Sequence record: PX418213.1
Length of the DNA: 64,000 bases
Direction: 5' to 3' (one strand)
From: a phage
Below, in pieces: positions 1 through 35,299 of the stretch (its first letter is position 1; each line of letters starts with the position of its first letter). The translations under genes and the position numbers were made by a program. Below the pieces are notes generated by a model that did not search any database, was not told where the DNA came from, and worked only from the letters and a program-made list of their open reading frames with translations.

Positions 1-202
1 GAGTCATATTTAAAGTCTAGATTATTTAGAAAATCTTCAATATCTTTTTCTGTATAACCTACGGGCAATACCCAAACTTCTTTGTCTCCATAATAACCGA
101 ATTCTATCTTAATACACTTAACTTCAGAATTAGTATTCTTTAGGGCAAGTAACAACTCTTCTTTAGCATTAATCATAGCATATTTCTCGTGCTAGTTTAA
201 TT

Positions 203-278
203 TGGTACACCCACTAGGACTTGAACCTAGAACCCTCCGCTTAAGAGGCGGTAGCTCTAACCATTGAGCTATGGATGT
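203..278 (-). tRNA. tRNA-Lys (anticodon CTT)
   Basis: Reverse-complemented T-arm on + strand (ctaggacttgaacctag); 7-bp acceptor stem acatcca/tgggtgt with one G-U; D-stem gctc/gagc; anticodon loop CTCTTAA; CCA encoded. Confidence 0.7.
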
Positions 279-455
279 ATTAAATTACTTTTTCCAGTTC
301 ATCAGCTATGGCTTTGATTTTTTCAAAGTTTACATCACTTATAATGATACCTTCCAGTGACAGAGATATTCTAGCATTTTTCATAGCAGATTCTTTTATC
401 TGCTCTATCTCTTCTGGAGTAAACTCCCTACGTTCCATAGCTAACCTACCTTATT

Positions 456-532
456 TGGCGCGACCGATGGGATTCGAACCCACATTCCCTCCCGTGACAG
501 GGGAGTACCATTACCAAGCCAGCCCCGGTCGC
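456..532 (-). tRNA. tRNA-Asp (anticodon GTC)
   Basis: T-loop motif ggattcgaacc on + strand; perfect 7-bp acceptor stem gcgaccg/cggtcgc; anticodon stem ctccc/gggag with loop CTGTCAC; CCA encoded. Confidence 0.75.
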
Positions 533-541
533 ATAATTCAT

Positions 542-727
542 TTACTCAGCTTTGAGTTTTTCAATAGCTGCATTAAGTTCCTTAAGAAACTCTTTTCGTA
601 CATTAAGACGATTAAGACTTACTAGTATATCATGTTTAAGTTCTTCGATGTATTTCTTCTCAACTTCAATATTGTTGAGAGTGCTATCACGATGAACCTC
701 TAGCTGCGCAATTACATTCTTGGACAT
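542..727 (-). CDS. hypothetical small protein (61 aa)
   Basis: ORF between tRNA genes; GAGGAAA Shine-Dalgarno-like motif upstream of the ATG on the minus strand. Confidence 0.4.
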   Translation of the reverse strand: MSKNVIAQLEVHRDSTLNNIEVEKKYIEELKHDILVSLNRLNVRKEFLKELNAAIEKLKAE

Positions 728-829
728 GCTTGTTTCCTCAGTTATTAATGAAAATGGTATCTGTGGCTGAATTCGATGTCAGCAATGATAGCTGGTTGGC
801 TACCGGTTTACTTAACTCTACACAGAATT

Positions 830-912
830 TGGCGGGCCGTGTAGGATTCGAACCTACGTTGTCTTTCGACATGGATTAACAGTCCACCGCCAAACCGCTT
901 GGCTAACGACCC
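830..912 (-). tRNA. tRNA with Asn-type anticodon arm (GTT) and a 13-nt extra arm
   Basis: T-arm gtagg-ttcgaat-cctac; acceptor gggtcgt/acggccc with one G-U; anticodon arm gtgga-CTGTTAA-tccat resembles enterobacterial tRNA-Asn; extra arm gtc-gaaa-gac gives 83 nt. Isotype uncertain. Confidence 0.5.
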
Positions 913-1064
913 TAAATTTATATTGCTGACTAGGATTTTCACCTAGACGGAGTTAGCACCGTAGCGTGTAGCGGCATACCTCTCCAAACCGTGCCTCATC
1001 TTTCAATTACGGAGACAGTGTTCCTACGCGTGCCTGAATTGATTTAACAATTCTTTCAGCAAAT

Positions 1065-1140
1065 TGGACGACCGCATGAGATTTGAACTCACATAAAAAG
1101 GATTTGCAATCCTTCGCCTAAGCCATTCAGCCAACGGTCG
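1065..1140 (-). tRNA. tRNA-Cys (anticodon GCA)
   Basis: T-loop revcomp gagatttgaactc on + strand; acceptor cgaccgt/gcggtcg with one G-U; anticodon arm aagga-TTGCAAA-tcctt; CCA encoded. Confidence 0.7.
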
Positions 1141-1188
1141 ATTTATCTTGTTCTGTCATGTTGCTTCTCCAGTTCAATTTATGTAATT

Positions 1189-1217
1189 ATTATACAGAAC
1201 TTTTGGAAACTAAGCAA
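1189..1217 (-). promoter_or_regulatory. sigma70-like promoter (minus strand): -35 TTGCTT, 17-bp spacer, -10 TATAAT
   Basis: On + strand: attata at about 1189-1194 and aagcaa at about 1212-1217; A/T-rich upstream; drives tRNA-Cys. Confidence 0.5.
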
Positions 1218-1497
1218 CTACATTTTTTAAGAATTTGATGCCTTTCTTTTTCTTCTTATATTTCCACGTTAATGGATTCTGTCGATTATGAACGCTTGAG
1301 ATCTTCGTCTCGTCAAAGTTCTTCAATATCATGTAATCACAAGATAATTGTTCTAGTGGAATGTGATCACCGTCAAAAGCGTATACATAGGGCTGTTGAC
1401 TAGCACGATAATGATAGACTTTGTTAATTCTACGTTTCAGCGACTTATCCGCGCAGTAAATAAAGAAGTTTTCAGGATGCATCAGCAGCTCCTTCAA
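1210..1497 (-). CDS. hypothetical protein (95 aa)
   Basis: ORF track; co-oriented with the early block; no recognisable motif. Confidence 0.45.
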   Translation of the reverse strand: MKELLMHPENFFIYCADKSLKRRINKVYHYRASQQPYVYAFDGDHIPLEQLSCDYMILKNFDETKISSVHNRQNPLTWKYKKKKKGIKFLKNVVA

Positions 1498-1499
1498 TT

Positions 1500-1574
1500 T
1501 GGTGCACCCTGTTCGTATCGAACGAACCTCTCAAGCTCTTCAGGCAAGCGCTAATCCATCTCAGCTAAAGGTGC
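1500..1574 (-). tRNA. tRNA-Phe-like (anticodon GAA), non-canonical anticodon stem
   Basis: Acceptor gcacctt/agggtgc; T-arm gttcg-ttcgata-cgaac; D-stem gctg/tagc; anticodon loop CTGAAGA but the stem carries two U-U mismatches. Could be a degenerate tRNA. Confidence 0.45.
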
Positions 1575-1580
1575 AAATTT

Positions 1581-1657
1581 TGGCAAACCTACTAGGACTC
1601 GAACCTAGACCGTACGGTTTTGGAGACCGACATGCTGTCCAGTAACACTCTAGGAAT
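1581..1657 (-). tRNA. tRNA-Trp-like (anticodon CCA)
   Basis: Anticodon arm tcggt-CTCCAAA-accgt and T-arm ctagg-ttcgagt-cctag closely resemble E. coli tRNA-Trp; acceptor stem pairs only 5 of 7 (two U-U), so the 5' boundary is uncertain. Confidence 0.5.
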
Positions 1658-1665
1658 GCAGGAAT

Positions 1666-1742
1666 TGGCGTCCTGTGCGGGGGTCGAACCCGCAAATCCT
1701 ACCTTGAAAGGGTAGTGACTTTACCAGTTTGTCTAACAGGAC
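1666..1742 (-). tRNA. tRNA-Glu (anticodon TTC)
   Basis: Perfect acceptor gtcctgt/acaggac; T-arm gcggg-ttcgacc-cccgc; anticodon arm ctacc-CTTTCAA-ggtag; CCA encoded. Confidence 0.7.
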
Positions 1743-1748
1743 TTAAAT

Positions 1749-1836
1749 TGGTGGGGAAAGATGGAGTCGAACCACCCGAGTCGCAATGACAACTGATTTA
1801 CAGTCAGCTCTGCTACCACTTACAGAATATTTCCCC
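1749..1836 (-). tRNA. tRNA-Tyr (anticodon GTA), class II with long variable arm
   Basis: Perfect acceptor ggggaaa/tttcccc; anticodon arm gctga-CTGTAAA-tcagt; long extra arm; T-arm ggtgg-ttcgact-ccatc; 88 nt with CCA. Confidence 0.7.
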
Positions 1837-1902
1837 ATATTTAGAAGTATTCAAAAAATTCTAATTTAAACACTTTTAAATATGTTTCCAAATTAGGTAA
1901 CT

Positions 1903-1931
1903 ATTATACCAAGTTTTAAGGCACTGAGCAA
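1903..1931 (-). promoter_or_regulatory. sigma70-like promoter (minus strand): -35 TTGCTC, 17 bp, -10 TATAAT
   Basis: Same architecture; immediately upstream of the tRNA-Tyr/Glu/Trp/Phe run. Confidence 0.5.
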
Positions 1932-1967
1932 GTCAAATTTTAAAGAACTTGCTCAGTGCTGTATTGG

Positions 1968-2243
1968 TTAGTCGAACTTAGGAGTGACAGTTAAGGAGAA
2001 TGGAAGTTCGAAAACTTCTTCACCCTCATTACTAACAGTAATTACACGACCTTTAAGTTCAGACATTGAAATATCAATATCAGCTTTTGCATCCGGAGCC
2101 ATGCCAGCTTCAACACATTTAGCTTTAATTTCCGGCAGAAGTTCTACATCATAGAAATAAAGCCATTCAATCTCACCTTCCCAGCCTTCCCAGGATTTAC
2201 AGATTGCACTTTCAATACCAGCTGCTATAACACGATTTTGCAT
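1968..2243 (-). CDS. hypothetical protein (91 aa)
   Basis: ORF track; promoter-like motif just upstream on the minus strand (about 2274-2304). Confidence 0.5.
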   Translation of the reverse strand: MQNRVIAAGIESAICKSWEGWEGEIEWLYFYDVELLPEIKAKCVEAGMAPDAKADIDISMSELKGRVITVSNEGEEVFELPFSLTVTPKFD

Positions 2244-2333
2244 TCATTAACTCCTTCATCAATTTATATAACTATTATATCAGAAATTTAAAGCAAAAGG
2301 CAAGTACATTTTTAAAAATTCTGTTTGGAGGAG

Positions 2334-2540
2334 CTAAACTCCAGATTCTTCAGCCAAGTCTAGGCTAATAAGAGATATAGCCATAATTGCCGCTCCATGT
2401 TCTTTTTCTCCAGTCTCTTTAGCTAGAGTTATAATGTCAAGAAATTGCTTATGAAAATCTGCAACCTCTTGAGTTATACCTGCCTCAGCAATCATGCCTT
2501 TAAGCATAAAACGTTGTGCAGTAATTTCAGGATTAGCCAT
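2334..2540 (-). CDS. hypothetical protein (68 aa)
   Basis: ORF track; co-oriented with the early block. Confidence 0.4.
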   Translation of the reverse strand: MANPEITAQRFMLKGMIAEAGITQEVADFHKQFLDIITLAKETGEKEHGAAIMAISLISLDLAEESGV

Positions 2541-2715
2541 GTTGTTTCTCCAGTTTCATCTTTAATAGTCTACAAATAAAATCAATGTCTTCATCCGTGC
2601 CTAGATCTCTGTCTTCAAGAGTTGCCTTGAAGTTTTTAGTCAATTCCATGAGGATAACTTCCCTAGAACGACGTGTTGGCGGAGGTGGATGTCTATACAT
2701 CTTATTTCCTTAATT

Positions 2716-2792
2716 TGGTAGGGGTGGTGGGATTCGAACCCACAAAACCTGAATTTTAAGTCCAGTACCTATGCCAATTCGATTACACCCCC
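2716..2792 (-). tRNA. tRNA with anticodon TAA (Leu-type reading) but short variable arm
   Basis: Acceptor gggggtg/cacccct; T-arm gtggg-ttcgaat-cccac; anticodon arm ctgga-CTTAAAA-ttcag; variable region only about 5 nt. Isotype uncertain. Confidence 0.5.
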
Positions 2793-2893
2793 ATGTAATC
2801 AGTTTATTAGTTGATACATATTATAGCCTAGTGAAAATCCTACTACTAGTCCCACAAACCAACCAATATAATAATCTTTTAGTTTCACAGGTA

Positions 2894-3079
2894 TTATCCT
2901 CTTTCAATATCTAGAGAAATACCACAGTTAGGATTAATACCTGTACCCTTGCAATTTGGGCAAATCCATATATTGCAAAAAGTATCTCCTGCTTCTGCAT
3001 CAGAACTTTCACCAATTCCCCTACACTCAGGGCAGGCGCATTCTTCTAGCTCTTGCTTGAGTTCTTGAAACTTGGACAT
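2894..3079 (-). CDS. small zinc-finger protein with two CxxCxGxG motifs (DnaJ-type)
   Basis: Translation contains CPECRGIG and CPNCKGTG. Confidence 0.45.
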   Translation of the reverse strand: MSKFQELKQELEECACPECRGIGESSDAEAGDTFCNIWICPNCKGTGINPNCGISLDIERG

Positions 3080-3088
3080 ATAGTCTCC

Positions 3089-3277
3089 TTAGTTAATTAC
3101 TTTTGAGGCTTCTAAAGCATTAACGTAGTAAACATCTTCTACATTATACATATAGTCTACTACTTTGTCCATAGCATGGAGTTCGGATGTAGCCTTTACT
3201 AGTCTGTACCCTTGTTTAAACTCGTCCGAACGTTCTCTATCTTGTGCAAATTTAACAGAAACTATGAATAATTCCAT
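3089..3277 (-). CDS. hypothetical protein (62 aa)
   Basis: ORF track only. Confidence 0.35.
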   Translation of the reverse strand: MELFIVSVKFAQDRERSDEFKQGYRLVKATSELHAMDKVVDYMYNVEDVYYVNALEASKVIN

Positions 3278-3296
3278 TAATTGTCCTTATTTAATT

Positions 3297-3374
3297 TGGT
3301 GGCTCCCCGAGGATTCGAACCTACGTACCTTCCGGTTATGAGCCGGGTGCTCATACCATATGAGCTTGAGAACC
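3297..3374 (-). tRNA. tRNA-Met/Ile-like (anticodon CAT)
   Basis: D-arm gctc-atatggtat-gagc; anticodon arm ccgg-CTCATAA-ccgg resembling Met tRNAs; acceptor ggttctc/gggagcc with two G-U; T-stem has only 3 clean pairs. Confidence 0.5.
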
Positions 3375-3380
3375 AAAATC

Positions 3381-3469
3381 TGGCGGAAGAAGTGGGAATC
3401 GAACCCACAAGGCTATATTTCAAACCGACAGATTAGCAATCTGCTGCAATACCGTTATGCTATTCTTCC
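3381..3469 (-). tRNA. tRNA-Ser (anticodon GCT), class II
   Basis: Perfect acceptor ggaagaa/ttcttcc; anticodon arm gcaga-TTGCTAA-tctgt; long extra arm; T-arm gtggg-ttcgatt-cccac; 89 nt with CCA. Confidence 0.7.
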
Positions 3470-3484
3470 GAATTTATAAGATAT

Positions 3485-3514
3485 ATTATATTAGAAATTT
3501 AGCTTCATAGCAAG
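3485..3514 (-). promoter_or_regulatory. sigma70-like promoter (minus strand)
   Basis: attata/agcaag pair with 18-bp spacer; upstream of tRNA-Ser and tRNA-Met-like. Confidence 0.45.
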
Positions 3515-4009
3515 AAAATTTTTCAAGTTTTCGGTAGACATCTCATCCATATCTACGGGAGAAACAAAGCCGTTTAATTTTCTAGCAAATTTTTCACCTG
3601 CAGGGTCATTATCCCCAACAGCTACCAATTTAAAAGGTAGTAATTTCAGTTGCTTTAATAATGCTTTTCCTGGAGAAGAACCCAACATTGCCAGGGCTGG
3701 ATAACCAGCGTTATGTAGCGCCACTGCCTTAAATACAGACTCAGCAATCAATACTACTTTTTCATCTCCATTGAGAGTTTCTAGTCCCCATACACACTGG
3801 GTAGTAGAATAAGTAAAATATTTAGCTTCAAAGGGGCACTTACCATGACCTTTTGGAGCAGAAGGATTATAAGTTTGATAGCCCCTCAACATCCCAGAGA
3901 AGTCATACAACGGGACTGTTAGCCATCCTTCCGGACTTAACCAGCAATGATATTTATCTGTATCAAATCCTCTAGATAAGAGGTGCTGTGTTAGCTCATC
4001 AACATTCAT
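3491..4009 (-). CDS. Toprim-domain protein
   Basis: Translation has the conserved Glu (LIAESV) and a DxD-type motif (VAVGDNDPAGEKFARKL). Start moved to the internal ATG at 4009 (MNVDEL) because the promoter -10 lies at about 4040-4045 and an AGAGGAA SD precedes it. Confidence 0.5.
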   Translation of the reverse strand: MNVDELTQHLLSRGFDTDKYHCWLSPEGWLTVPLYDFSGMLRGYQTYNPSAPKGHGKCPFEAKYFTYSTTQCVWGLETLNGDEKVVLIAESVFKAVALHNAGYPALAMLGSSPGKALLKQLKLLPFKLVAVGDNDPAGEKFARKLNGFVSPVDMDEMSTENLKNFLAMKLNF

Positions 4010-4039
4010 ATTTGGTTCCTCTCTCAAATTTATAGATAT

Positions 4040-4068
4040 ATTATACTGAGAATTTAGCATTCAAGCAA
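4040..4068 (-). promoter_or_regulatory. sigma70-like promoter (minus strand)
   Basis: attata/aagcaa with 17-bp spacer; upstream of the Toprim gene. Confidence 0.45.
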
Positions 4069-4184
4069 TCAAATTTTTTAACTTTTTAGAGGAAAATCAT
4101 AGGGCACTTAAGGGTAGCAGATAAGTGGTGAGGACCAAAATTTGTGACCCCACTAAAAATTCAGGGGCAATTTTTAAAGACCCC

Positions 4185-4213
4185 TTGACATTTTCGCTGG
4201 GGTAGTGTAAAGT
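4185..4213 (+). promoter_or_regulatory. sigma70-like promoter (plus strand): -35 TTGACA, about 17 bp, -10 TAAAGT
   Basis: ccTTGACAttttcgctggggtagtgTAAAGTat upstream of the counter-oriented cassette. Confidence 0.45.
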
Positions 4214-4274
4214 ATATGTTATGGATGAGTGATCAAAGAGACACACATTTTCTATATACTAGGAGGTGTCAAAA

Positions 4275-5261
4275 ATGACAGAAGAAGTAGCTAAGAGTCC
4301 TGAGACCGTCGCTAGCGTTGCAGCAGAACTGCACCGTCACGAGGAATCAGATAAGAAAAAGTGGGAGAAGGTCAGAGCCTACGAAGAAAAACATCGTGAA
4401 CACGATGATGAAGAAGATGACGATGATGAACATTGTCATAAATATGGAAAACATAAAATGCAAGAACCAGTAAACGTATTTACTAGTGGCTTCCCTGGCC
4501 TACTGGGTGGTTACCCAGCAAACGCAGGTGCTTTCGGTGGTGAAGGTATGGGACTATTCGGAGCTATCCTAATCGGTGCTCTATTAACAGGCGGATTCGG
4601 TGGATTCGGTGGATTCGGTGGACGTGGTATAGTTGGTGAAGGTACCGCAGTTGATGCAGTACTTCAGAACCAAGATACCGCTAGTATTCTAGCAGCTATT
4701 AACACTACTCGTACAGAAGCTAATCAGGGTACTGGGGCTGTTTTAAGCGCAGTTAACAATGGTTTTAGCCAGACATCCCAAAACCAGAGCCGTGATACTC
4801 AGTCTGTACTAACTACGATCTATGGTACAGGTGCTAATCTGTCTAATCAGATCTGCCAGGAAACTCGCAATGTTATTCAGGGTCAGTTCGATCTTTCTCG
4901 CCAGATTGATCAATCTTTCGCAGCTAATCAGATAGCTCGTGCACAAGATAAGTTTGATTCTGCACAGATCGCTTTCCAGCAGACTTTACAAACTAATAAC
5001 CAGTTTGCCGCTGTTCAGGCTCAGATGTGTGCTAACCAGAACTCTCTGGAACGTCAGATCGCTGAATGTTGCTGTGAACTTCAGACTGCGATCGCTGGTG
5101 TAACTACTGCGCGTATCCAGGATGAGTTAGACGCATGTCGCCTACGTGAAGCAATCGCTGCGGGTAGCGGTGCTAACGGTCAGGTAATTAATCAAATCGC
5201 TTTAAGTCTTGGTGCTATCACTCAGACTCTGGCTGGTCTGCAGGCTAAACTGCCGGCTTAA
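4275..5261 (+). CDS. hypothetical protein: acidic His-rich N-terminus, glycine-zipper hydrophobic segment, Gln/Asn/Thr-rich C-terminus
   Basis: AGGAGG SD at 4261-4266 then ATG 4275 (the track start at 4266 is GTG); GLFGAILIGALLTGGFGGFGGFGG segment; E. coli-like codon choice; plus-strand gene inside the minus-strand block. Confidence 0.55.
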   Translation: MTEEVAKSPETVASVAAELHRHEESDKKKWEKVRAYEEKHREHDDEEDDDDEHCHKYGKHKMQEPVNVFTSGFPGLLGGYPANAGAFGGEGMGLFGAILIGALLTGGFGGFGGFGGRGIVGEGTAVDAVLQNQDTASILAAINTTRTEANQGTGAVLSAVNNGFSQTSQNQSRDTQSVLTTIYGTGANLSNQICQETRNVIQGQFDLSRQIDQSFAANQIARAQDKFDSAQIAFQQTLQTNNQFAAVQAQMCANQNSLERQIAECCCELQTAIAGVTTARIQDELDACRLREAIAAGSGANGQVINQIALSLGAITQTLAGLQAKLPA

Positions 5262-5282
5262 TATTAAGGGGAGGAGCCCATT

Positions 5283-5699
5283 ATGAGTAAATATGGTTTT
5301 GTAAATAACGGACTTAATCAAAGTATGGGCTCCCAGCAGCCCGTTCCGGGTCTGGATAACCCCTACTTACAACAGTTGCAACAGCGTTTAGCAGAAGCGC
5401 AACAGATGCAGCAACAACTCCAGCAAAACCCTGGAAGTGTAAGTCCTATGCAAATGATGCAGCAAATGAGCGGGCAGTCGCAAATGTCTCAACAAATGCA
5501 GCAACAGATGCCGCAGCAGCAAGTTCAACAACAAACCCAACAACCGCAGGTTTCTGCGGAAGGACAGGCAGTACTAGCCCTTTTCGAAGACTTCGCAAAG
5601 ACAGAGGATGGGAAACAGCTTGTATCACTTATGGGTAAGTTTAATAGCTTCTGCCAAAGCCAAGTTGCAAAAGCTCAAAATGGTGGTAATAACTCCTAA
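5283..5699 (+). CDS. hypothetical Gln-rich protein (138 aa)
   Basis: GGGGAGGAG SD upstream of ATG; highly Gln-rich low-complexity translation; co-transcribed with the 4275 gene. Confidence 0.5.
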   Translation: MSKYGFVNNGLNQSMGSQQPVPGLDNPYLQQLQQRLAEAQQMQQQLQQNPGSVSPMQMMQQMSGQSQMSQQMQQQMPQQQVQQQTQQPQVSAEGQAVLALFEDFAKTEDGKQLVSLMGKFNSFCQSQVAKAQNGGNNS

Positions 5700-5708
5700 G
5701 GAGAAATT

Positions 5709-5903
5709 ATGTGTTGCAGAAAATCTGTTTCGTGCTGCCCAATGCCTGTAGCACGTTGTTGCTCTCCAGCAATGTTTACGCAAATACCGGCGTTCAATCC
5801 GTTTGCCTTTAAGCCTACTCTTATCCTGCCCCCTAGAGTGGATTTTCAGTCAAGATTGGCCTCCCGTATGGGTGGTTGCTGTACACCGAGAGTGTGGTTC
5901 TAA
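5709..5903 (+). CDS. hypothetical Cys-rich small protein (64 aa, 9 Cys)
   Basis: AAGGAG SD at about 5697-5702 then ATG 5709; CC pairs in translation; followed by a rho-independent terminator. Confidence 0.4.
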   Translation: MCCRKSVSCCPMPVARCCSPAMFTQIPAFNPFAFKPTLILPPRVDFQSRLASRMGGCCTPRVWF

Positions 5904-5915
5904 ACCAAAAACAAA

Positions 5916-5949
5916 AGCCCCTGCCGAAAGGTAAGGGGCTTTTTCTTTT
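5916..5949 (+). terminator. rho-independent terminator for the rightward cassette
   Basis: Hairpin agcccct/aggggct followed by ttttctttt. Confidence 0.6.
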
Positions 5950-5959
5950 GCCTTAAATA

Positions 5960-5994
5960 CAGAAAAGCCCGCGCTCTCGGAGGAAACGCGGGCT
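5960..5994 (-). terminator. rho-independent terminator (minus strand) after the SPFH gene
   Basis: Hairpin agcccgcg/cgcgggct; on the minus strand it is followed by TTTTCT. Confidence 0.55.
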
Positions 5995-6018
5995 TGGTTC
6001 GAAGATTACGTGTAACTA

Positions 6019-6966
6019 TTACTTGTTACGCATATCCATGATCATTTGACCATCGTAGCCAGTACCTACCACAGTCTGAGGTACACCACCTTGATATTTC
6101 TGAGCACGAATCATCTCAACTTCCAGTTGTTTCCAACGAATCATCTCAGGAGTAATAGTACGTTGCAATGCGGCGTTAGCTTCAGCTTCTTTCTTAGCTG
6201 CGTACAGTTTAGCATCTGCGTCACGTTCATTAGCAATAGCTTGGTTGTTGCGAGCTTCACGATCTGCTTCTGCTTGTTTAACCTTCTGCTGTGCTTCTTG
6301 TTCAACACGAGCCAGTTCAGCTTTTGCAGCATTAACTTGCTCTTCACGAACTTTGGTATTCTGTACCTGCTCCATGATTACCGGTGGCAAAGTAATATCC
6401 TGAAGGAACACCTGCTTAACTGTGTAACCATATGGGCGTGCATACTCTTCAACTTCCTGTTGAATTGCAGTTTGCAATTGAGCCTGAATTTTAGCATCAA
6501 ACAAATCTTGTGCTTTAGGTACAGACTTACCAAACTCACGAATAGTAGACAGTAATTTTTCAGTTACATATTTGTCTAACGCTTGATCCTGAGTACCTGC
6601 ATTAATACGGTTAATCGGTGCCTTAGAACCATCAAACTGCAACATAACAGTCAGGTCAACAGTGGATTTAAACTTATCCTGACTAGGAACCTGAAGTTTA
6701 TCTAATTTTAGAGCAATATCTTTTGTACTAAAAGTATCGAAAGAAGCAAAAGGATTTACAATATGAAAGCCGGGTAATACTGGATTAGGGTCTACTTTAC
6801 CCAGGAAAGTCTGGGTTTTAACAGTACCGTCTTGAACAACAGTATAGGAGTTAAGGGCCAGAACTAAACCTACCAAACCAACTGCAGCACCAATACCCCA
6901 ACGTTTGATATTACGCATCAATTTTTGCTCATAAGTCAGTTCTTTAGTGTTTTTAGTAGCAAACAT
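6019..6966 (-). CDS. SPFH/band-7 (prohibitin/stomatin-like) membrane protein
   Basis: N-terminal hydrophobic segment (IGAAVGLVGLVLAL), SPFH-like core, Ala/Glu/Gln-rich coiled-coil C-terminus; terminator hairpin downstream on the minus strand. Confidence 0.65.
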   Translation of the reverse strand: MFATKNTKELTYEQKLMRNIKRWGIGAAVGLVGLVLALNSYTVVQDGTVKTQTFLGKVDPNPVLPGFHIVNPFASFDTFSTKDIALKLDKLQVPSQDKFKSTVDLTVMLQFDGSKAPINRINAGTQDQALDKYVTEKLLSTIREFGKSVPKAQDLFDAKIQAQLQTAIQQEVEEYARPYGYTVKQVFLQDITLPPVIMEQVQNTKVREEQVNAAKAELARVEQEAQQKVKQAEADREARNNQAIANERDADAKLYAAKKEAEANAALQRTITPEMIRWKQLEVEMIRAQKYQGGVPQTVVGTGYDGQMIMDMRNK

Positions 6967-7000
6967 ATATTTCCTTTGTTTTAGTTACAGTTAATAAAAT

Positions 7001-7075
7001 TGGCCGAGGTGACAGGATTCGAACCTGCATAAAGGAATTTAGAAGACTCCTGCCTCTCCCTTAGACTACACCCCG
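7001..7075 (-). tRNA. tRNA-Arg (anticodon TCT)
   Basis: Acceptor cggggtg/cacctcg with one G-U; T-loop ggattcgaacc motif on +; anticodon arm ggagt-CTTCTAA-attcc; CCA encoded. Confidence 0.7.
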
Positions 7076-7083
7076 AAATTTAG

Positions 7084-7584
7084 TTATTTAATCAGATTAG
7101 CTTGACTTTCCACTGCTTCTGTAGCAGCTTTCTCAGCAATTCTAGCAGCTCGATTTGTCCTAGCTTTAGCAATTATCTTTTTATATTGTTCATCTATTAG
7201 ATCTTCTATCTCGTCATAGAATCTACATTGGTCTAGATAATTTATTGCATCAACATTATAAAGTTTTATATGTAATGCAGAGCTACGACCACCTTTCAAT
7301 GTGCTTTCTAAGATCTGTGGACGATAACGTCTAAGAGTATCTTTTGCCTTTTTAACTTCACCAGTTTCTTCTCCTAATTGGATTAGGTGATAAAGTCGGG
7401 TGTTATCAACGTAGTGCAGTTCAACACTGTGATATTCACCTTCACGAAGATTAAATCCGGTGAGTTTACTCATCTTTTCCTGTGCTTGTTCCAGTGTAAG
7501 CCGCTCCGTAAAATGAACTACGTACAGGATATGAGGACAACACATCTCTTGATGATCAAATATACAAGTAGTTCCTAGATTCAT
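7084..7584 (-). CDS. hypothetical protein (166 aa)
   Basis: ORF track; co-oriented. Confidence 0.5.
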   Translation of the reverse strand: MNLGTTCIFDHQEMCCPHILYVVHFTERLTLEQAQEKMSKLTGFNLREGEYHSVELHYVDNTRLYHLIQLGEETGEVKKAKDTLRRYRPQILESTLKGGRSSALHIKLYNVDAINYLDQCRFYDEIEDLIDEQYKKIIAKARTNRAARIAEKAATEAVESQANLIK

Positions 7585-8101
7585 AGATATATTTCCTATT
7601 CTAAGTATTTTTAAGAATTCTCATAAAAACTCTTAAAAATACAGACGATACCGGGAGAGTCATAAGTCTCACTCATTAAGTATTTCAAGACAAAATACGG
7701 TAACGTCTATTATTTTCCAGTTTAAGTCAGGGTGACTTAGTGGTTATGTCCTGCGGTATATTGAGGACTCGGTTAGGCTTGGGGTCATGACTTCCCACCT
7801 TTTGCTGCTACTCAACAGGAGTTATCGCGAATTACCTGTGCTATTGTGCACCATTAGTGACATCTCTCATGTCAGCATTTCCCACTTTGTGGATAGCTTG
7901 AAAAACTACTCCGATATGGAGAAAGAACTTCACTATCCTAGAATACCTTCTAAAGTTCTTCTTTAGCCTGGACATAGTTAAATCGTAATAAAACTATTCA
8001 GCAGACTGGTTGGTTAGTCTGGAACCAACTACCGCGTGGTTTAGGCAGTGCGCAACTAACCTCGGAAGCTTTTACGTTAAAAGCACCAGTTATCCAGTTC
8101 T

Positions 8102-8173
8102 TACCGACCGTAGGATTCGAACCTACATCTTCCACCAGTTACGACTTGATAATACCAATTATACTAGGACGGC
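8102..8173 (-). tRNA. tRNA-like element (degenerate; no clean anticodon arm, no CCA)
   Basis: T-arm gtagg-ttcgaat-cctac identical to that of the 830-912 tRNA; acceptor pairs 6 of 7; no convincing anticodon stem-loop found by hand. Confidence 0.3.
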
Positions 8174-8396
8174 AGTGTTACTACATAAGTGATTTCCACA
8201 CCCCACTATTTATAAATTAGAGAAGAGTTTAGGGGAGAGGTTTCAGACGCCTCATTTTACACGTTCTAGCCACTAACCGGGATTGCCGCCCCCTGTGTAC
8301 TAGTTTTACAACTAACCCACCGACTCTATTCAATGCGCTCCGCTTGGGATTCTGCACTCAGCGTAATCGGCTCGCTGTTCCCTAATTTATGAATAT

Positions 8397-8425
8397 ATTA
8401 TACAGAATTTATAAGCATTTAGCAA
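8397..8425 (-). promoter_or_regulatory. sigma70-like promoter (minus strand) firing into an ORF-free region
   Basis: attata/tagcaa with 17-bp spacer; downstream on the minus strand (8390 to about 7600) there is no ORF of 60 aa or more, only the tRNA-like element. Confidence 0.45.
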
Positions 8426-8433
8426 ATAAATTT

Positions 8434-8877
8434 TTAATTAAATTCTCCAGCAATCTGAGCAGCAGTACCACCATCATAACGCCCAGGAAATTCTTCCTTA
8501 ATCGCTTTCATCAGCATACCCTTTGTAATTCCAGGGTTTAGCTTAACTAATTCTGCAAAGTATTTACGAATCTCAGTATCAGATAACTGAGGAGGCAGAT
8601 ACTCCTGCAACCATTTATTTAGAATGTACTCATACTGAGCAGACTGCAAGCTATAACTATCAAGATCTTGACCATGAAGTTTAGCTTTCATCTGGTTAAT
8701 GCTTTTTAGTTGAGCTTTGAGATAAGACACAAATTGTTCAGAAGTGATGAAATCTTTATCAATACGCTGAAGATCCCCAATTATGGTCTGATAGCTTTTA
8801 GCGACTTCTTTATCAGAACCATTAAACTTAGAATCCTGCAAAGCTCTACGCAAAACATCTAAAATATTCTCTTCCAT
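8434..8877 (-). CDS. hypothetical protein, possible GatB/YqeY-like C-terminal domain
   Basis: C-terminal GMLMKAIKEEFPGRYDGGTAAQIAGEF resembles the YqeY/GatB motif; start overlaps the stop of the upstream small ORF (TAATG). Confidence 0.45.
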   Translation of the reverse strand: MEENILDVLRRALQDSKFNGSDKEVAKSYQTIIGDLQRIDKDFITSEQFVSYLKAQLKSINQMKAKLHGQDLDSYSLQSAQYEYILNKWLQEYLPPQLSDTEIRKYFAELVKLNPGITKGMLMKAIKEEFPGRYDGGTAAQIAGEFN

Positions 8878-9047
8878 TATTTCATTCCTAACGCTTGGTT
8901 AAAAGATTGTTCTGTCATAACTGCTGAGACTTTGGCGAAATCAAACTTTTTAGGGTTCGTAGTGATTTCAGCAACGTTAGAAGTTTTAACAGTTTTCGTA
9001 GTACGAATACCGCGAGTGTTAACACCAATAATTACAACTGATTTCAT
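8877..9047 (-). CDS. hypothetical small protein (about 56 aa, below ORF-track threshold)
   Basis: Hand translation MKSVVIIGVNTRGIRTTK...; GAGGAAG SD upstream; promoter motif at about 9079-9107 directly upstream. Confidence 0.4.
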   Translation of the reverse strand: MKSVVIIGVNTRGIRTTKTVKTSNVAEITTNPKKFDFAKVSAVMTEQSFNQALGMK

Positions 9048-9078
9048 ATTTCGCTTCCTCTCATTAATTTATGAAAGT

Positions 9079-9107
9079 ATTATACAGAAATTTAAGTAGT
9101 TGAGCAA
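9079..9107 (-). promoter_or_regulatory. sigma70-like promoter (minus strand)
   Basis: attata/gagcaa with 17-bp spacer; upstream of the 8877..9047 small ORF. Confidence 0.45.
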
Positions 9108-9115
9108 GTAAATTT

Positions 9116-9565
9116 TTAAGTTTTAGTGACAACAGGTTTATAGAATGTATGTCCCTTAATCTTAGTTGTTTTCTTAAATTTCTTTGTCCAGTAAGGTTTA
9201 TCTTTACCACTATGGAAGTATAGTGCTCCATGTGTAGGATCTTGTGGTAAATCAACGTAGTATATCACTCTAGCTAAATTCTTAGCGGTTTGCCAAGCCT
9301 CATCAGTTTTATCAACTTTTGGTCTCTTAGATACCCAAGAGAACTGGTTAGACTGATATACTACTTTACAGTAGGAATCTGGGAATTTACCGGAGTTTAC
9401 ACGGTTTTTAGTAACATGTGCAATCGCCGTCATTCCCTTTATGCCCTCACCACGACTTTCGAAATAGATATTTTTAGCAATGCAATCTATTTCTTTTGCA
9501 TCGTGCGATGCCTGACTACTAAAGCTGAAGGTAAGGGCAGCTACTAAAAGCAAAGCTGCCTTCAT
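9116..9565 (-). CDS. SleB/CwlJ-like cell-wall hydrolase with N-terminal signal peptide
   Basis: Signal-like N-terminus MKAALLLVAALTFSFSSQA; Hydrolase_2-type motifs (NIYFESRGEG, AIAHVTKNR, QFSW); start placed at the ATG preceded by AGGAG. Confidence 0.6.
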   Translation of the reverse strand: MKAALLLVAALTFSFSSQASHDAKEIDCIAKNIYFESRGEGIKGMTAIAHVTKNRVNSGKFPDSYCKVVYQSNQFSWVSKRPKVDKTDEAWQTAKNLARVIYYVDLPQDPTHGALYFHSGKDKPYWTKKFKKTTKIKGHTFYKPVVTKT

Positions 9566-9569
9566 TCTT

Positions 9570-9887
9570 TTACTCCTGCCAATCATATTCAACACGATTG
9601 GGATTTTCTTTATACCCTAAGTCAAGCAAATCATTACGCATATTTTGCTTAGCTACTGGGTTCGAGGTTACTAGTACCACTTTCTTTGGTCTCTGCCCAA
9701 ATTCTAAGAGTAAACGAAGAATTTGATAACCTTCCATACCATCTACAGCCAAGTCATTATCCATATAAACGAAATGGCCTGTGGTATCAGTTTTATTCAG
9801 AAACTCTACAGCGGCTTCTGGGGTTCGAATGATAATGTCCATTCCGTGAAGATTACGCACATCATCAATCAAAATATGAAAAGTCAT
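9570..9887 (-). CDS. hypothetical protein, weak CheY-like receiver resemblance
   Basis: ILIDDV, YMDNDLAVDGMEGYQIL and VVLVTSNP spaced like receiver-domain acidic pocket, Asp and Thr/Ser; by-eye only. Confidence 0.35.
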   Translation of the reverse strand: MTFHILIDDVRNLHGMDIIIRTPEAAVEFLNKTDTTGHFVYMDNDLAVDGMEGYQILRLLLEFGQRPKKVVLVTSNPVAKQNMRNDLLDLGYKENPNRVEYDWQE

Positions 9888-9917
9888 AATAGCCTCGTTT
9901 CATCAATTTAAAAATAT

Positions 9918-9946
9918 ATTATACATATAATTTAGTAGATTAGCAA
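9918..9946 (-). promoter_or_regulatory. sigma70-like promoter (minus strand)
   Basis: attata/tagcaa with 17-bp spacer; upstream of 9570..9887. Confidence 0.45.
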
Positions 9947-10329
9947 ATACATTTTTAAATTGTGAAACTAGTAAACCGATAAACAGCCTAGAGGCGCCAC
10001 AGGCCATATCTTATGAGCCATGTACCTTTGATCTAGGGTTTGAATCATCAACGAATACTTTGCATCTTTTAGCTTTAGAAGTTTAGAAGTTTGAGTTCTT
10101 TAAACTTTTCAGCTTTCATACTTAAATGTTGATCTTTGAAGTTGTGTCGGTAATATCAACGACGCTTTGTTCTTACGTGTCAGCTTAAAAGGCTGGTGTA
10201 ATAAACATAATCTCCAATAGATTATACTTTATAGTATGGTCAGCGGTCCTATTTAACCTCGTATTTCAACCGCTGCTGCGAGGTAAGATGCTTGGGCTTT
10301 CGTCTACCGATTTACTAGCTTTTAAATTA

Positions 10330-10968
10330 TTACTCTACTTCAATGAAGGTAGAGGCGTTAGACTCGGACAGAACAAAGTCAACATTTGTTGCAAAGTCCT
10401 GATATTCCTCGTCATGCTGCTTAATCAGCTTTTCCAGTTCCAGCGGATCAATCAAGAATGGAGTATTCTTGAGTTCCAGCAGGTTGAGCTGCATTTTAAC
10501 TTCATCTTCGGAAGTTTTCTTATCGCGGGTAGCCATGCTATCCTGCAAACGCTCATATTTAGCATCAAACTGTGCTTTCTGCGTATTAAACTTAACCGTA
10601 GCGGCATGGAACTGCTTACGCATATTAGCCAGCAGTTGGGCTTTAAGTTCCATAGAACGCTTAGCTTCAATTGCTTCCGCAACAGTCATCTTACGAGAGC
10701 CAATCTCAACGATTGTTTCCGCATTGCTTTTAATCAGAGCAGATTTGATACGATCACGCTGGGACATCATATCCAGGAGAGATTGGAAATCTGCCTTAAT
10801 ACGAGTAGACAAATCAGCTACTTCGATTGCAGCGCCAACTACAACCTGGTTTTTATCCTTACCTTCGCCAACAGCGATCAGAAGCTGCTGTTCAGTAGCT
10901 TTACGGATTTTAGCTTCCAGAGATTTGATAGTTGCCAGAGCGCGAGTTTTAGAGATACGAGTAGTCAT
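10330..10968 (-). CDS. hypothetical protein (212 aa)
   Basis: ORF track; the long + strand ORFs over this region are taken as antisense artefacts. Confidence 0.55.
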   Translation of the reverse strand: MTTRISKTRALATIKSLEAKIRKATEQQLLIAVGEGKDKNQVVVGAAIEVADLSTRIKADFQSLLDMMSQRDRIKSALIKSNAETIVEIGSRKMTVAEAIEAKRSMELKAQLLANMRKQFHAATVKFNTQKAQFDAKYERLQDSMATRDKKTSEDEVKMQLNLLELKNTPFLIDPLELEKLIKQHDEEYQDFATNVDFVLSESNASTFIEVE

Positions 10969-11021
10969 TATTTGCTTCCTTATATGAAGTTTGAGATTTG
11001 AATTTGTTTAAATTTGGTCTA

Positions 11022-11204
11022 TTACAGACCAATTGCCAGCAGAGTGCGCAGAACAGTATCATTACTGTTATCAATTTTAGGATTAGCACGATTTAGCAGA
11101 TCAAAGATCTTCTGGATACCTGATTGACGTTCAGCCATACGACGGATGCCCAGATTACGAGTAGCTTTCTTACCATTTTTACGAACATTTTTAGATACTG
11201 GCAT
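11022..11204 (-). CDS. hypothetical small basic protein (60 aa)
   Basis: ORF track; promoter motif at about 11245-11273 upstream. Confidence 0.4.
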   Translation of the reverse strand: MPVSKNVRKNGKKATRNLGIRRMAERQSGIQKIFDLLNRANPKIDNSNDTVLRTLLAIGL

Positions 11205-11274
11205 ATTTGTTTTCCTTTTATTGTTTTCTCAAATTTATGAGTATATTATACAGAATTTTGGGGCCGGAAGCAAA

Positions 11275-11976
11275 TCAAATTTTCATTTTTTCGATCATAG
11301 CTGCAACACAATAGCTCTCAACTAAGGCATCAAATGCAGGAGCATGCTTAACCGGATAGATCCCATAACGAATGGTGTCCATCTTTTCCATTTTAGCTAT
11401 TGCCCAGCTAATACCTTCGGTCTCTAGAGCTTTATAACTGTATCCAGCTTGCATCCAGAGATTACGAAGAGATCGAACATTGCCCAAATTCCAGAATTTC
11501 CACGGAACTACCTCTTCATTGGTTCCAGCATGGAACGTATTTGCAGAGTAGATAGTCATATCAAACTCTGGGCCATTGCCATAATACAAAGCATTTTCGC
11601 CTAGAGCCAACTCCATAATATTTTGAGCCATAGAGAAGGCAGCATAGTTTGAGCCTAATTTATTAGTGCAATGATGTTTACCATTTTGGAAGGCAATCAG
11701 TTTTGGATTACGTTCCTTCATAGCTTCCATAATGTGGATAGCAGACGGACTATTTTTAGCTTGATCCATCCAGAATGCTAGAGTAGATGCTGTAACTTTG
11801 GCACCAGAATTAAGTTGATCTTGCACATCCAAAGTAACAAATACTAGATCAGGGTCTTTATCAATTCCATGCATAGCCACAAAAGCGAAAGAAGGCATTG
11901 CGATATGAGTAGTACCACAATCTCCTGGAGTTCCTAGAGATTCAATATCTAGCATACCAAATGGTTTTACTTTCAT
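11275..11976 (-). CDS. DnaQ-like 3'-5' exonuclease (DEDDh type)
   Basis: Exo I-like MLDIESLGT (DxE) near the N-terminus and Exo III-like KHAPAFDAL (H-x4-D) near the C-terminus. Confidence 0.5.
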   Translation of the reverse strand: MKVKPFGMLDIESLGTPGDCGTTHIAMPSFAFVAMHGIDKDPDLVFVTLDVQDQLNSGAKVTASTLAFWMDQAKNSPSAIHIMEAMKERNPKLIAFQNGKHHCTNKLGSNYAAFSMAQNIMELALGENALYYGNGPEFDMTIYSANTFHAGTNEEVVPWKFWNLGNVRSLRNLWMQAGYSYKALETEGISWAIAKMEKMDTIRYGIYPVKHAPAFDALVESYCVAAMIEKMKI

Positions 11977-12004
11977 AACTTATCCTTTATTGTGTAGAAA
12001 ACTA

Positions 12005-34519: not shown

Positions 34520-35299
34520 ATGAAAATCGAAATTCCAACACAATGTCCCTCTTGTGGTTCTAAGCTAGATCTTGTCAACGGACAATTATTCTGTCGGAAT
34601 AAGTCCAACTGTCCAGCGCAATCAAGTAAGTTAATTGAGAACTTCTGTTCAAAAATGAAGTTAAAGGGCTTTGGCCCAAAAACTATTGAGAAGCTGGAGC
34701 TGACGAAGATTTCAGAACTATTTTACCTAACCGAAGAAGATTTGGTTAGAGCCGTGGGTAGCAAGGTTGCCGCTAAGTTAATTAGCGAATTAAATACTAA
34801 AGTTCGCGGAGACATTGACTTTGGTTCAGTTCTCGGTTCTTTAGGAATCCCTCTAATTGGAGAGGTTGCAGCAAAGAAATTATCCCAAAATTGCACTAGC
34901 TTCCACGATGTGAAGGCTGACGGCAAGGCTGGAGAAAACTATAAAGCCTGGCTAAATTCCCCACAAGGCAAGGATGTTATCGAACTACCGTGGAAATTCT
35001 CAACTGGTATTAAGGGCACTAAAGCTAATATTATCATTACGGATGAATTAGTTGCCCGGCCAAATGGAATCACGGTATGTATTACCGGATCTTTGCAAGA
35101 TTTTGCAAATAGAACGGATGCAACAAACTATTTAGAAAGTCTAGGATATACGGTTAAGAAATCCGTTACCAAAGACGTTAAATACCTAATCTGTGAGGAT
35201 GAATCAAAACGTTCTTCCTCATCTTATAAGAAAGCCGAAACGAATGGGATAGAAATCCTGTCGATTAAAGAACTATTGGAGAAAAATAATAATGTCTAA
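34520..35299 (+). CDS. ligB: NAD-dependent DNA ligase, Zn-finger/HhH/BRCT subunit (split ligase, part B)
   Basis: Cys4 zinc finger (CPSCGS...CRNKSNCPAQ), HhH-like segments, BRCT-like C-terminus; start at ATG 34520. Confidence 0.65.
   Translation: MKIEIPTQCPSCGSKLDLVNGQLFCRNKSNCPAQSSKLIENFCSKMKLKGFGPKTIEKLELTKISELFYLTEEDLVRAVGSKVAAKLISELNTKVRGDIDFGSVLGSLGIPLIGEVAAKKLSQNCTSFHDVKADGKAGENYKAWLNSPQGKDVIELPWKFSTGIKGTKANIIITDELVARPNGITVCITGSLQDFANRTDATNYLESLGYTVKKSVTKDVKYLICEDESKRSSSSYKKAETNGIEILSIKELLEKNNNV

Follow-up and report, generated by a model that had tools for sequence, protein, structure and literature searches.

Several described phage systems resemble, each in part, a three-gene cassette (ORF1, ORF2 and ORF3) located in the tRNA region of a T5-like phage (Tequintavirus). 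We analysed this cassette within a 64,000-nt stretch of DNA, sequence record PX418213.1; the whole stretch is called the window here, and all coordinates are in window numbering. The Rz/Rz1 system of phage lambda is similar in that ORF1 is a putative type II protein of the inner membrane, with conserved cysteines and long helices that would be periplasmic, ORF3 could be its small Pro-rich, Cys-containing partner, and genes of the ORF1 family lie near lysis genes in many phages. Unlike Rz1, ORF3 has no lipoprotein signal, and ORF1 is much larger than its counterpart, rich in Gln, Asn and Thr and low in charge, with no sequence similarity. The T4 RI antiholin and signal-anchor-release (SAR) proteins share with ORF1 a weakly hydrophobic Gly/Ala-rich segment of a kind able to leave the membrane; they too are accessory and non-essential, and the putative envelope-side domain of ORF1 could bind a lysis protein. 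In contrast to these proteins, the ORF1 segment starts near residue 92 instead of being N-terminal, the protein is three times larger and not homologous, and lysis inhibition is not known to be linked to the cassette locus. Superinfection-exclusion morons such as HK97 gp15, T4 Imm/Sp and lactococcal Sie2009 are also self-contained units that run against local transcription, vary in presence and encode a putative membrane protein, yet the cassette has three genes, and conservation of the ORF1 family extends over phages whose hosts belong to several bacterial phyla. Finally, p16.7 of phi29 is dispensable, like the cassette, and early and abundant, as ORF1 would be; one hydrophobic anchor precedes helical regions that self-associate in p16.7, and would do so in ORF1. 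The phi29 protein has 130 aa, is anchored through its N-terminus and binds DNA through its C-terminal domain, whereas ORF1 shows no DNA-binding features and no homology to it.

The explanation we favour, with a probability of roughly one in three, is that the cassette produces an abundant, weakly membrane-anchored helical envelope protein and two small partners, which together would act as a lysis- or envelope-associated accessory. As an annotation the cassette is not new, and its kind, an autonomous accessory operon, is familiar. The tRNA-region records of T5 and phage 5 list it as ‘ORF 327aa/138aa/64aa’ (T5p075-077), all hypothetical proteins, and the same records already carry a ‘promoter P12’ and a ‘bidirectional terminator ter1’ at this place. 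What is new is that the T5 proteins are linked to a large uncharacterised phage family with invariant motifs, and with this come the proximity to lysis genes and the dispensability of the cassette. A literature search on the gene names T5.077-079 and T5p075-077 and on T5 transcriptomes gave no relevant result. In T5, a classical model phage, this operon, probably a well-expressed one, has been listed as ‘hypothetical’ for about twenty years, and the ORF1 family comprises hundreds of phage proteins without a Pfam domain or structure.

A counter-oriented operon with conserved signals

The three ORFs form a real operon with coding constraint and conserved signals (Table 1). All three plus-strand reading frames exist exactly where the first-pass annotation, made from the letters of the window, had placed them. 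Its claim of counter-orientation also holds, as all other convincing genes and 11 tRNA genes within 1-12000 are on the minus strand. The same annotation had described a self-contained module with its own promoter, Shine-Dalgarno (SD) sites and a terminator facing that of the convergent SPFH gene; each of these elements was recovered, with terminator hairpins found on both strands. Over the region 4100-6000, the window shares 99.4% identity with Salmonella phage PH204, and 388 phage records match this region.

Table 1. Features of the cassette and its right boundary, in window coordinates
Feature	Coordinates	Strand	Description and evidence
Promoter (P12)	4167..4213	+	A/T-rich upstream tract; -35 TTGACA 4185-4190; 17-nt spacer; -10 TAAAGT 4208-4213
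ORF1	4275..5261	+	328 aa; dN/dS, PHROG 8119, family profile, conserved motifs
ORF2	5283..5699	+	138 aa; short N-terminal helix YLQQLQQRLAEAQ, Gln/Met/Pro-rich disordered linker, C-terminal helical domain EGQAVLALFEDFAKTEDGKQLVSLMGKFNSFCQS (predicted)
ORF3	5709..5903	+	64 aa; basic, Pro/Phe-rich, starts MCC; Cys 2, 3, 9, 10, 17, 18, 57, 58
Cassette intrinsic terminator (part of ter1)	5913..5949	+	hairpin 5913-5943, then UUUUUCUUUU (U5CU4)
SPFH/Band-7 gene terminator	5955..5995	-	hairpin 5995-5965 and U-tract, 12-bp stem; right module boundary, not part of module
Accessory unit by natural deletions	4247..5950		blastn of window against L024 and L025; coverage across 449 T5-like records

A sigma-70 consensus scan of the promoter gives 10 of 12 matches. 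The block TTTTAAAGACCCC-TTGACA-N17-TAAAGT is kept in seven T5-like loci and in a relative of ~36% identity (contig L010), where the spacer has diverged, and the hexamers together with the upstream TTTTAAAG tract are conserved in eight T5-like loci, including the divergent L010 and L011. The P12 promoter annotation is present in records AJ604531 and AY734508. A degraded copy of the promoter is still found in the cassette-less phage Shivani. We take P12 to be a mapped in vitro binding site of E. coli RNA polymerase, which would fit early expression. Strong SD sites (AGGAGG, GGGGAGGAG and AAGGAG) are located 7-9 nt upstream of the ATG of ORF1, ORF2 and ORF3, respectively. For ORF1, the ORF listing gives a GTG start at 4266, a codon that overlaps the SD site, and the deposited records use the ATG at 4275.

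The hairpin of the cassette terminator has a predicted stability of -22.8 kcal/mol (z -3.64), with none of 200 shuffled sequences being as stable. It is annotated in BB1, phage 5 and T5, and its stem carries compensatory changes between T5 and the window. The opposing terminator (dG -20.7, z -3.86) is still present in the cassette-less phages AKFV33 and Shivani. The gene that it serves encodes an SPFH/Band-7 membrane protein (6019-6966, minus strand, convergent with the cassette; Pfam E 3e-17) and has the sixth highest frequency of optimal codons (Fop, 0.632) among 52 window ORFs. Since cassette-less phages retain the SPFH gene, the two are not an obligate pair. The ‘major DNA single-chain interruption’ of the T5 record, just right of ter1, aligns to window position ~5974, in the GCCC-GCGC-TCTC stem/loop of the SPFH terminator hairpin (5965-5995). 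One site-specific nick of T5 thus coincides with the junction of the convergent terminators.

Across seven T5-like loci, dN/dS is 0.13-0.20 for ORF1 and 0.05-0.32 for ORF2, values low enough to indicate clear purifying selection on both. Pairs of ORF3 sequences within T5-like phages differ by just 2-10 synonymous and 3-15 non-synonymous changes, and the resulting dN/dS of 0.09-1.1 carries little test power. Synonymous divergence in ORF3 is below that of the neighbouring ORFs; no RNA element was found to explain this, with no Rfam family matched and a folding z of only -1.2. An MCC frame (ATG-TGY-TGY) of 60-69 codons, with its own SD site, directly follows ORF2 in four lineages. Among the divergent loci with this frame are the T5-like contigs L010 and L011 (ORF1 identity 36-43%) and a Pseudomonas-phage contig, L012, in all of which a second CC pair and an F..P..NPF-like core recur while the remainder is barely alignable. 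This pattern fits a translated, fast-evolving small protein.

Codon usage and translation signals suggest that ORF1 is abundant: its Fop for E. coli optimal codons (0.653) ranks fourth among the 52 window ORFs, and its SD site is strong. The cassette (4275-5903) has a G+C content of 46-49%, compared with a window mean of 39.1%. The G+C at third codon positions in ORF1 is just 0.33, which attributes the excess mostly to the Gly/Ala/Gln-rich composition of the protein and not to foreign base composition.

Variable presence among T5-like phages

Homologs of known function at this locus in all T5-like phages would have spoken against the first-pass annotation; instead, the cassette is missing from about half of these phages. 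A 3.6-kb query spanning both flanks matched 449 records, with at least 80% coverage in 212 of them only, and tblastn located ORF1 in 223 records and ORF3, mostly unannotated, in 222 phage records at 81.8% identity or above (all except one partial match at 87.5% or above). In AKFV33, DT571/2, vB_EcoS_I14 and others, the primase-like and SPFH genes adjoin directly. AKFV33 is without window positions 4005-5956 and Shivani without 4247-5950, and these different deletions represent at least two independent losses; lytic growth can therefore proceed without the operon. Having a promoter and a terminator of its own, and being precisely absent from AKFV33, Shivani and other genomes that are otherwise collinear, the cassette has the hallmarks of a phage moron. 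Because it is dispensable and natural isogenic-like pairs exist, T5-like phages offer a simple genetic system for finding its function.

This anatomy bears on the possibility that the cassette is a superinfection-exclusion moron, in which an abundant early (or prophage-made) membrane protein would block DNA entry or adsorption of competitors in the manner of T4 Imm/Sp, HK97 gp15 or lactococcal Sie proteins. A promoter and terminator of its own, an orientation against its surroundings, polymorphic presence and independent losses would all be expected of such a unit, as would a membrane segment of the kind predicted in ORF1. The module also sits between lysis genes and integrase in temperate Firmicutes-type phages, which is a classic moron position. 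However, known exclusion proteins are small, specific for one receptor or tape-measure protein and not conserved across phyla, whereas the ORF1 family keeps its invariant motifs in phages of hosts as different as Enterobacteria, Pseudomonas, Bacteroides and Clostridia. The modules moreover contain several genes, and no sequence similarity to any Sie protein was found. We consider exclusion a possible role of the cassette, though an unlikely one.

The same distribution, together with an early-type promoter, a site among other small early genes and the acidic N-terminal tract of ORF1, could point to variable early genes whose products disarm host immunity or act against a host function at the membrane. 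A host-specific target is hard to reconcile with conservation in phages that infect unrelated hosts, and the low-complexity structural features and probable high abundance of ORF1 are unusual for inhibitors. No similarity to known anti-defence proteins was seen either, and PADLOC defence models gave no match for ORF1-3 at E<=0.1. A role in anti-defence or host takeover is therefore given a low probability.

The cassette also occurs outside T5-like phages. Contig L012 (Logan contig SRR12736257_14882), from a 62-kb Pseudomonas-type phage with a GC content of 56% that is related to Pseudomonas phage RSP (MK443266), carries the same three genes beside those for terminase and portal protein. Over its C-terminal half, the ORF1 of this phage is 60% identical to the T5-like protein, which implies that the module has moved horizontally between phage lineages that are unrelated. 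Among Epseptimavirus loci, the ORF1 N-terminus of EscoHU1 and GSW6 (L016/L017) has an expanded His/acid tract (…HHYHHHHHEHYEEDDEDDEEEDEHEHH…). In GSW6 (L017:3999-4403) the ORF3 frame shifts near the C-terminus and extends to 134 codons, either by sequencing error or as a natural variant.

The cassette proteins and the ORF1 family

The composition of the proteins is as the first-pass annotation had described it, with an acidic/His-rich N-terminus, a hydrophobic segment and a Gln/Asn/Thr/Ala-rich remainder in ORF1, and a Gln-rich ORF2 (28% Gln). Two of its details needed correction. ORF3 contains eight cysteines, arranged as four CC pairs, and not nine. The ‘glycine zipper’ of ORF1 has glycines spaced G96-x4-G101-x4-G106, which differs from the canonical GxxxG pattern (GxxxGxxxG, with Gly at i, i+4 and i+8), although some crAss-like members of the family do have GFLLGALFG. 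From its N-terminus, ORF1 consists of a predicted helix (residues ~12-43), the acidic/His-rich tract (~44-62), a conserved MQEPVNVFT motif, and a Gly-rich, weakly hydrophobic segment (~91-116; GLFGAILIGALLTGGFGGFGGFGG) that ends in ...GGFGGFGGFGG and whose best 19-residue Kyte-Doolittle (KD) window is 1.72. Long, predicted amphipathic helices follow (~125-324), containing an invariant CCC at 265-267 (AECCCELQ at 263-270). The segment has a SAR-type composition (MGLFGAILIGALLTGGFGG, KD19 1.7, with about half of the residues Gly, Ala or Thr), and membrane targeting of ORF1 is plausible but marginal on these values.

We had set out from a single-sequence search with ORF1, which returned divergent T5-like and Pseudomonas-phage proteins plus a few matches at 25% identity. 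A profile built from these retrieved at least 854 proteins. The family corresponds to PHROG 8119 together with PHROG 16490, the latter holding the crAss and Firmicutes relatives, and has no Pfam entry; the link between the two groups is made here by the profile search only. ORF1 itself matches PHROG 8119 end to end (E 4e-204), and its CCC region weakly matches PHROG 16490. ORF2 belongs to PHROG 7894 and ORF3 has no PHROG match. In line with the first-pass annotation, which could assign the proteins to no family, none of this leads to a family whose function is known. The label of both PHROG 8119 and PHROG 7894 is ‘unknown function’, and searches of Pfam, NCBIfam, PADLOC and the PDB with the cassette proteins returned nothing meaningful, only sub-threshold compositional matches (RIFIN, ZorA tail). 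Searching PDB chains with the family profile and three module neighbours also gave nothing significant; a match to influenza HA2 across its fusion-peptide region was dismissed as noise (E 0.35).

Motif statistics were taken over 124 members. Typical of the family is an N-terminus that is short and uncharged and carries an (M)xPVxV-like motif. A hydrophobic segment of ~15 residues is found in all 124 members (KD 1.7-2.1; family mean KD15 1.75-2.0), followed by a GGFGGFGG-type run and including invariant or near-invariant Gly and Phe columns. The helical part covers ~170-200 residues rich in Gln, Asn, Ser, Thr and Ala, and the CCC motif (consensus A-x-CCCENR) is present in 123 members. Most members then have a Pro-rich stretch and a Gly/Tyr/Phe/Cys-rich C-terminal tail with an aromatic last residue. 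This tail is missing from the T5-like and Pseudomonas-phage proteins, which end ...LQAKLPA where the tails of other members begin. Another peculiarity of the T5-like proteins is an N-terminal extension of ~90 residues, made up of a confidently predicted helix (12-43) and the acidic/His-rich tract, so that the hydrophobic segment starts at about residue 92 in them and about residue 39 in other members.

The complementary distribution and similar composition of ORF3 and the C-terminal tails raised the idea that ORF3 is a split-off tail; this found no support, as a hidden Markov model of 98 tails scores ORF3 orthologs no higher than shuffled sequences. A canonical heptad coiled coil also seems less likely for the helical part. 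Hydrophobic periodicity is 3.62-3.70 residues in seven members, against 3.5 for a heptad, and beats all shuffles in one member only (P0034, 0/300; ORF1, 35/300), which makes ‘amphipathic helices’ the safer wording. AlphaFold2 (AF2) models of ORF1 (16 sequences; mean predicted local distance difference test score, pLDDT, 48.7, with 77-89 in the N-terminal helix) and of P0034 (105 sequences; pLDDT 55.0) otherwise show long, low-confidence helices.

ORF2 always follows ORF1 in T5-like and Pseudomonas-phage loci. Its conserved C-terminal domain retrieves only six clusters among 1.84 billion representatives and is thus clade-restricted, and its Gln/Met-rich linker is not kept in divergent orthologs. 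The label ‘cAMP-dependent protein kinase catalytic subunit’, which ORF2 bears in several deposited genomes and UniRef entries, looks like a propagated mis-annotation, as neither a kinase domain nor any Pfam family is detectable in the protein. ORF3, which starts MCCRKSVS, has no signal peptide, lipobox or hydrophobic h-region (best KD19 window 0.85). A role in metal handling, suggested by the His-rich ORF1 N-terminus, the Met-rich ORF2 linker and the Cys clusters, was dropped because the His and Met richness is not kept in divergent orthologs.

These compositional features would also suit a cytoplasmic self-assembling scaffold, in which cohesive Gly/aromatic ends and a helical rod (keratin/KAP-like or FG-like) would form, with ORF2 and ORF3, a filament or condensate that organises infection and is optionally tethered to the membrane like phi29 p16.7. 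The flanks of the hydrophobic segment are uncharged and Gly-rich, most members combine GGFGGFGG with G/Y/F-rich C-terminal tails, ORF2 is Gln-rich and predicted to be disordered, the partners have no signal peptides, and expression would be early and abundant. The case is one of compositional analogy, however, with no structural support obtained; divergent orthologs do not conserve the Gln/Met-rich ORF2 linker, and Cys clusters would remain reduced in the cytoplasm. We find such a scaffold improbable.

Members of the family are encoded by crAss-like phages of at least two families, Bacteroides phage C3_41T2LP, Clostridium perfringens phages, Butyrivibrio phage Ceridwen and Pseudomonas phages, as well as by many faecal-virome contigs and, with weak E-values, two predicted Methanomassiliicoccales viruses. 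The crAss-like phages are described by Bayfield et al. as the most abundant human gut viruses, and a function found in T5-like phages could carry over to many unculturable gut phages.

Some crAss-like homologs are labelled ‘outer capsid protein/viral fiber’ or ‘spike protein/glycoprotein’, which raises the question of a virion protein: a helical fibre or ejected protein with a buried hydrophobic anchor, Cys cross-linked after release, with the partners as further virion components. The homologs with these labels adjoin ring and muzzle genes, one copy (L009) comes after large tail-fibre-like genes, and one neighbour has a weak match to a PHROG annotated as virion structural protein. Module proteins have no signal peptides and several contain Cys clusters, and a spread over host phyla in gut viromes would suit a host-independent virion function. 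On the other side, the labels stem from weak similarity to helical fibre proteins, and the T5-like genes, preceded by a promoter with consensus -35/-10 elements, belong to the early tRNA region and not to the late structural block. The family profile matches no PDB chain, those of the PhicrAss001 virion included; the PhicrAss001 virion paper names no ORF1-like protein encoded around the ring protein genes. About half of T5-like phages also manage without the cassette. To our knowledge, ORF1 is not among the reported T5 virion proteins. A place in the virion appears quite unlikely.

Gene neighbourhoods and a possible link to lysis

In Crassvirales, the family gene lies within 2.2 kb of holin, LysB-like or endolysin genes in all five annotated genomes, with differing gene orders. 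In temperate phages of the Firmicutes type it is found 1.4-2.2 kb downstream of holin/endolysin genes and upstream of the integrase; the distance to lysis genes is 1.7 kb in Ceridwen and 4.7 kb in CPD1, with a range of 1.4-4.7 kb over five Firmicutes-type phages. In the T5-like loci (the window, L010 and L011), a gene for a secreted SleB-like hydrolase is located 2-5 kb from ORF1, and in three further loci (L003, L006 and L009) the family gene adjoins one for a multi-transmembrane protein. Because family genes stand beside holin, endolysin or cell-wall-hydrolase genes in most other lineages, a lysis-connected envelope accessory is the likeliest role of the cassette. The first-pass annotation had suggested exclusion or anti-defence as possible roles, and the neighbourhoods in other lineages point instead to lysis and cell-wall genes. 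The proximity is suggestive and not proof.

The hydrolase gene of the window (9116-9595, minus strand) encodes a 159-aa protein with an N-terminal signal peptide and similarity to SleB-type cell-wall hydrolases (TIGR02869, E 2e-13). This makes it a second lysin-like gene, with a secreted product, that stands apart from the main lysis cluster; L010 and L011 have a Hydrolase_2 gene at a comparable position. Three Firmicutes-type temperate contigs (L021-L023) share a conserved set of small genes flanking the ORF1-like gene. Their products are a small protein whose Cys/His motif hints at a peptidase (PHROG 3754), a protein rich in Tyr, Gln and Pro (PHROG 21718), a mini-protein rich in Gln and Met (PHROG 22984), a beta-rich protein with a Cys cluster (PHROG 20016) and a protein rich in Arg, Tyr and Gly (PHROG 28802). 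The types represented by PHROGs 20016 and 28802 recur in crAss-like loci.

A second spanin-like system was also considered, with ORF1 as the Rz-like inner-membrane part and ORF3 as the Rz1-like Pro-rich partner, together disrupting the outer membrane. ORF1 would have the N-in/C-out topology, helical periplasmic segments and conserved cysteines of such a protein, ORF3 is small, Pro-rich and Cys-containing, and the family is found near lysis genes in other lineages. ORF1 is, however, twice the size of an i-spanin and poor in charged residues, and a lipobox is missing from ORF3. Rz-like spanins are encoded separately in T5-like phages, as reported for orf150/151 of phage OSYSP beside its holin (orf147) and endolysin (orf146), so that the cassette is not the spanin; it also lies in the tRNA region instead of the holin-endolysin cluster. 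Spanins would be expected only in phages of hosts with an outer membrane, and the ORF1 family occurs in phages of the monoderm hosts Clostridium perfringens and Butyrivibrio. These results largely refute the idea, and we give it very little credence.

The mechanism that we favour, a lysis- or envelope-associated accessory, would begin with transcription of the operon by unmodified host RNA polymerase from its consensus-like promoter, probably early, ending at its own terminator, and ORF1 would build up to high levels. Its Gly-rich, marginally hydrophobic segment would insert into or associate with the cytoplasmic membrane, most likely with the acidic/His-rich N-terminus remaining cytoplasmic and the helical, Cys-bearing part of ~200 residues on the periplasmic side. 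For the T5-like proteins, N-in appears to be the only plausible orientation, as translocation of ~90 highly charged N-terminal residues without a signal is implausible. ORF1 may self-associate, and the CCC motif may lock the oligomer through interchain disulfides or a metal site, with ORF2 and ORF3 as small partners specific to the lineage. The assembly would then condition the envelope or tune the timing or completeness of lysis, as an accessory and not an essential step. If the lysis link is true, it would add a phage lysis component that works in both monoderm and diderm hosts.

Several observations weigh against this proposal, which is built from sequence and finds no homology to any characterised protein. 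Family-wide, there is almost no Lys or Arg within 25 residues on either side of the hydrophobic segment, which is atypical for a stable membrane anchor, and the AF2 models are of low confidence (pLDDT 49-55). No signal peptides are present in ORF2, ORF3 or the module neighbours of other lineages, and if these signal-less partners bind the helical domain, that domain would be cytoplasmic. The occurrence of the family in phages of monoderm and diderm hosts means that the mechanism cannot depend on an outer membrane. The main holin/endolysin/spanin cluster of T5-like phages is elsewhere in the genome, and the cassette looks early and not late. As to the neighbourhoods, the post-lysis site in small temperate phages also gathers unrelated morons, and the Crassvirales cases share ancestry and are not fully independent.

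A bolder version, which we advance tentatively and regard as unlikely, is that the ORF1 family represents an unrecognised class of envelope proteins across phages of Enterobacteria, Pseudomonas, Bacteroides (crAss-like) and Clostridia. Its releasable or cohesive Gly-rich segment and CCC-locked helical rod would serve a host-independent step at the cytoplasmic membrane, for example as a new component of lysis or lysis control or as a membrane-remodelling scaffold. The T5 cassette would then be the genetically most tractable example of the class.

Three further observations concern other parts of the window. Two minus-strand segments, 3300-3374 and 8102-8173, are tRNA-like by the Rfam tRNA model (40.3 and 35.5 bits) and are not called by ARAGORN. 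The first corresponds to tRNA-Ile2/Met(CAT) of the T5 and phage 5 records, and the second lies within a region annotated in relatives as stable ‘RNAX’ or pseudo-tRNA. The ORF at 35292-36059 (plus strand) has by far the highest Fop in the window (0.819) and probably encodes a very highly expressed phage protein.

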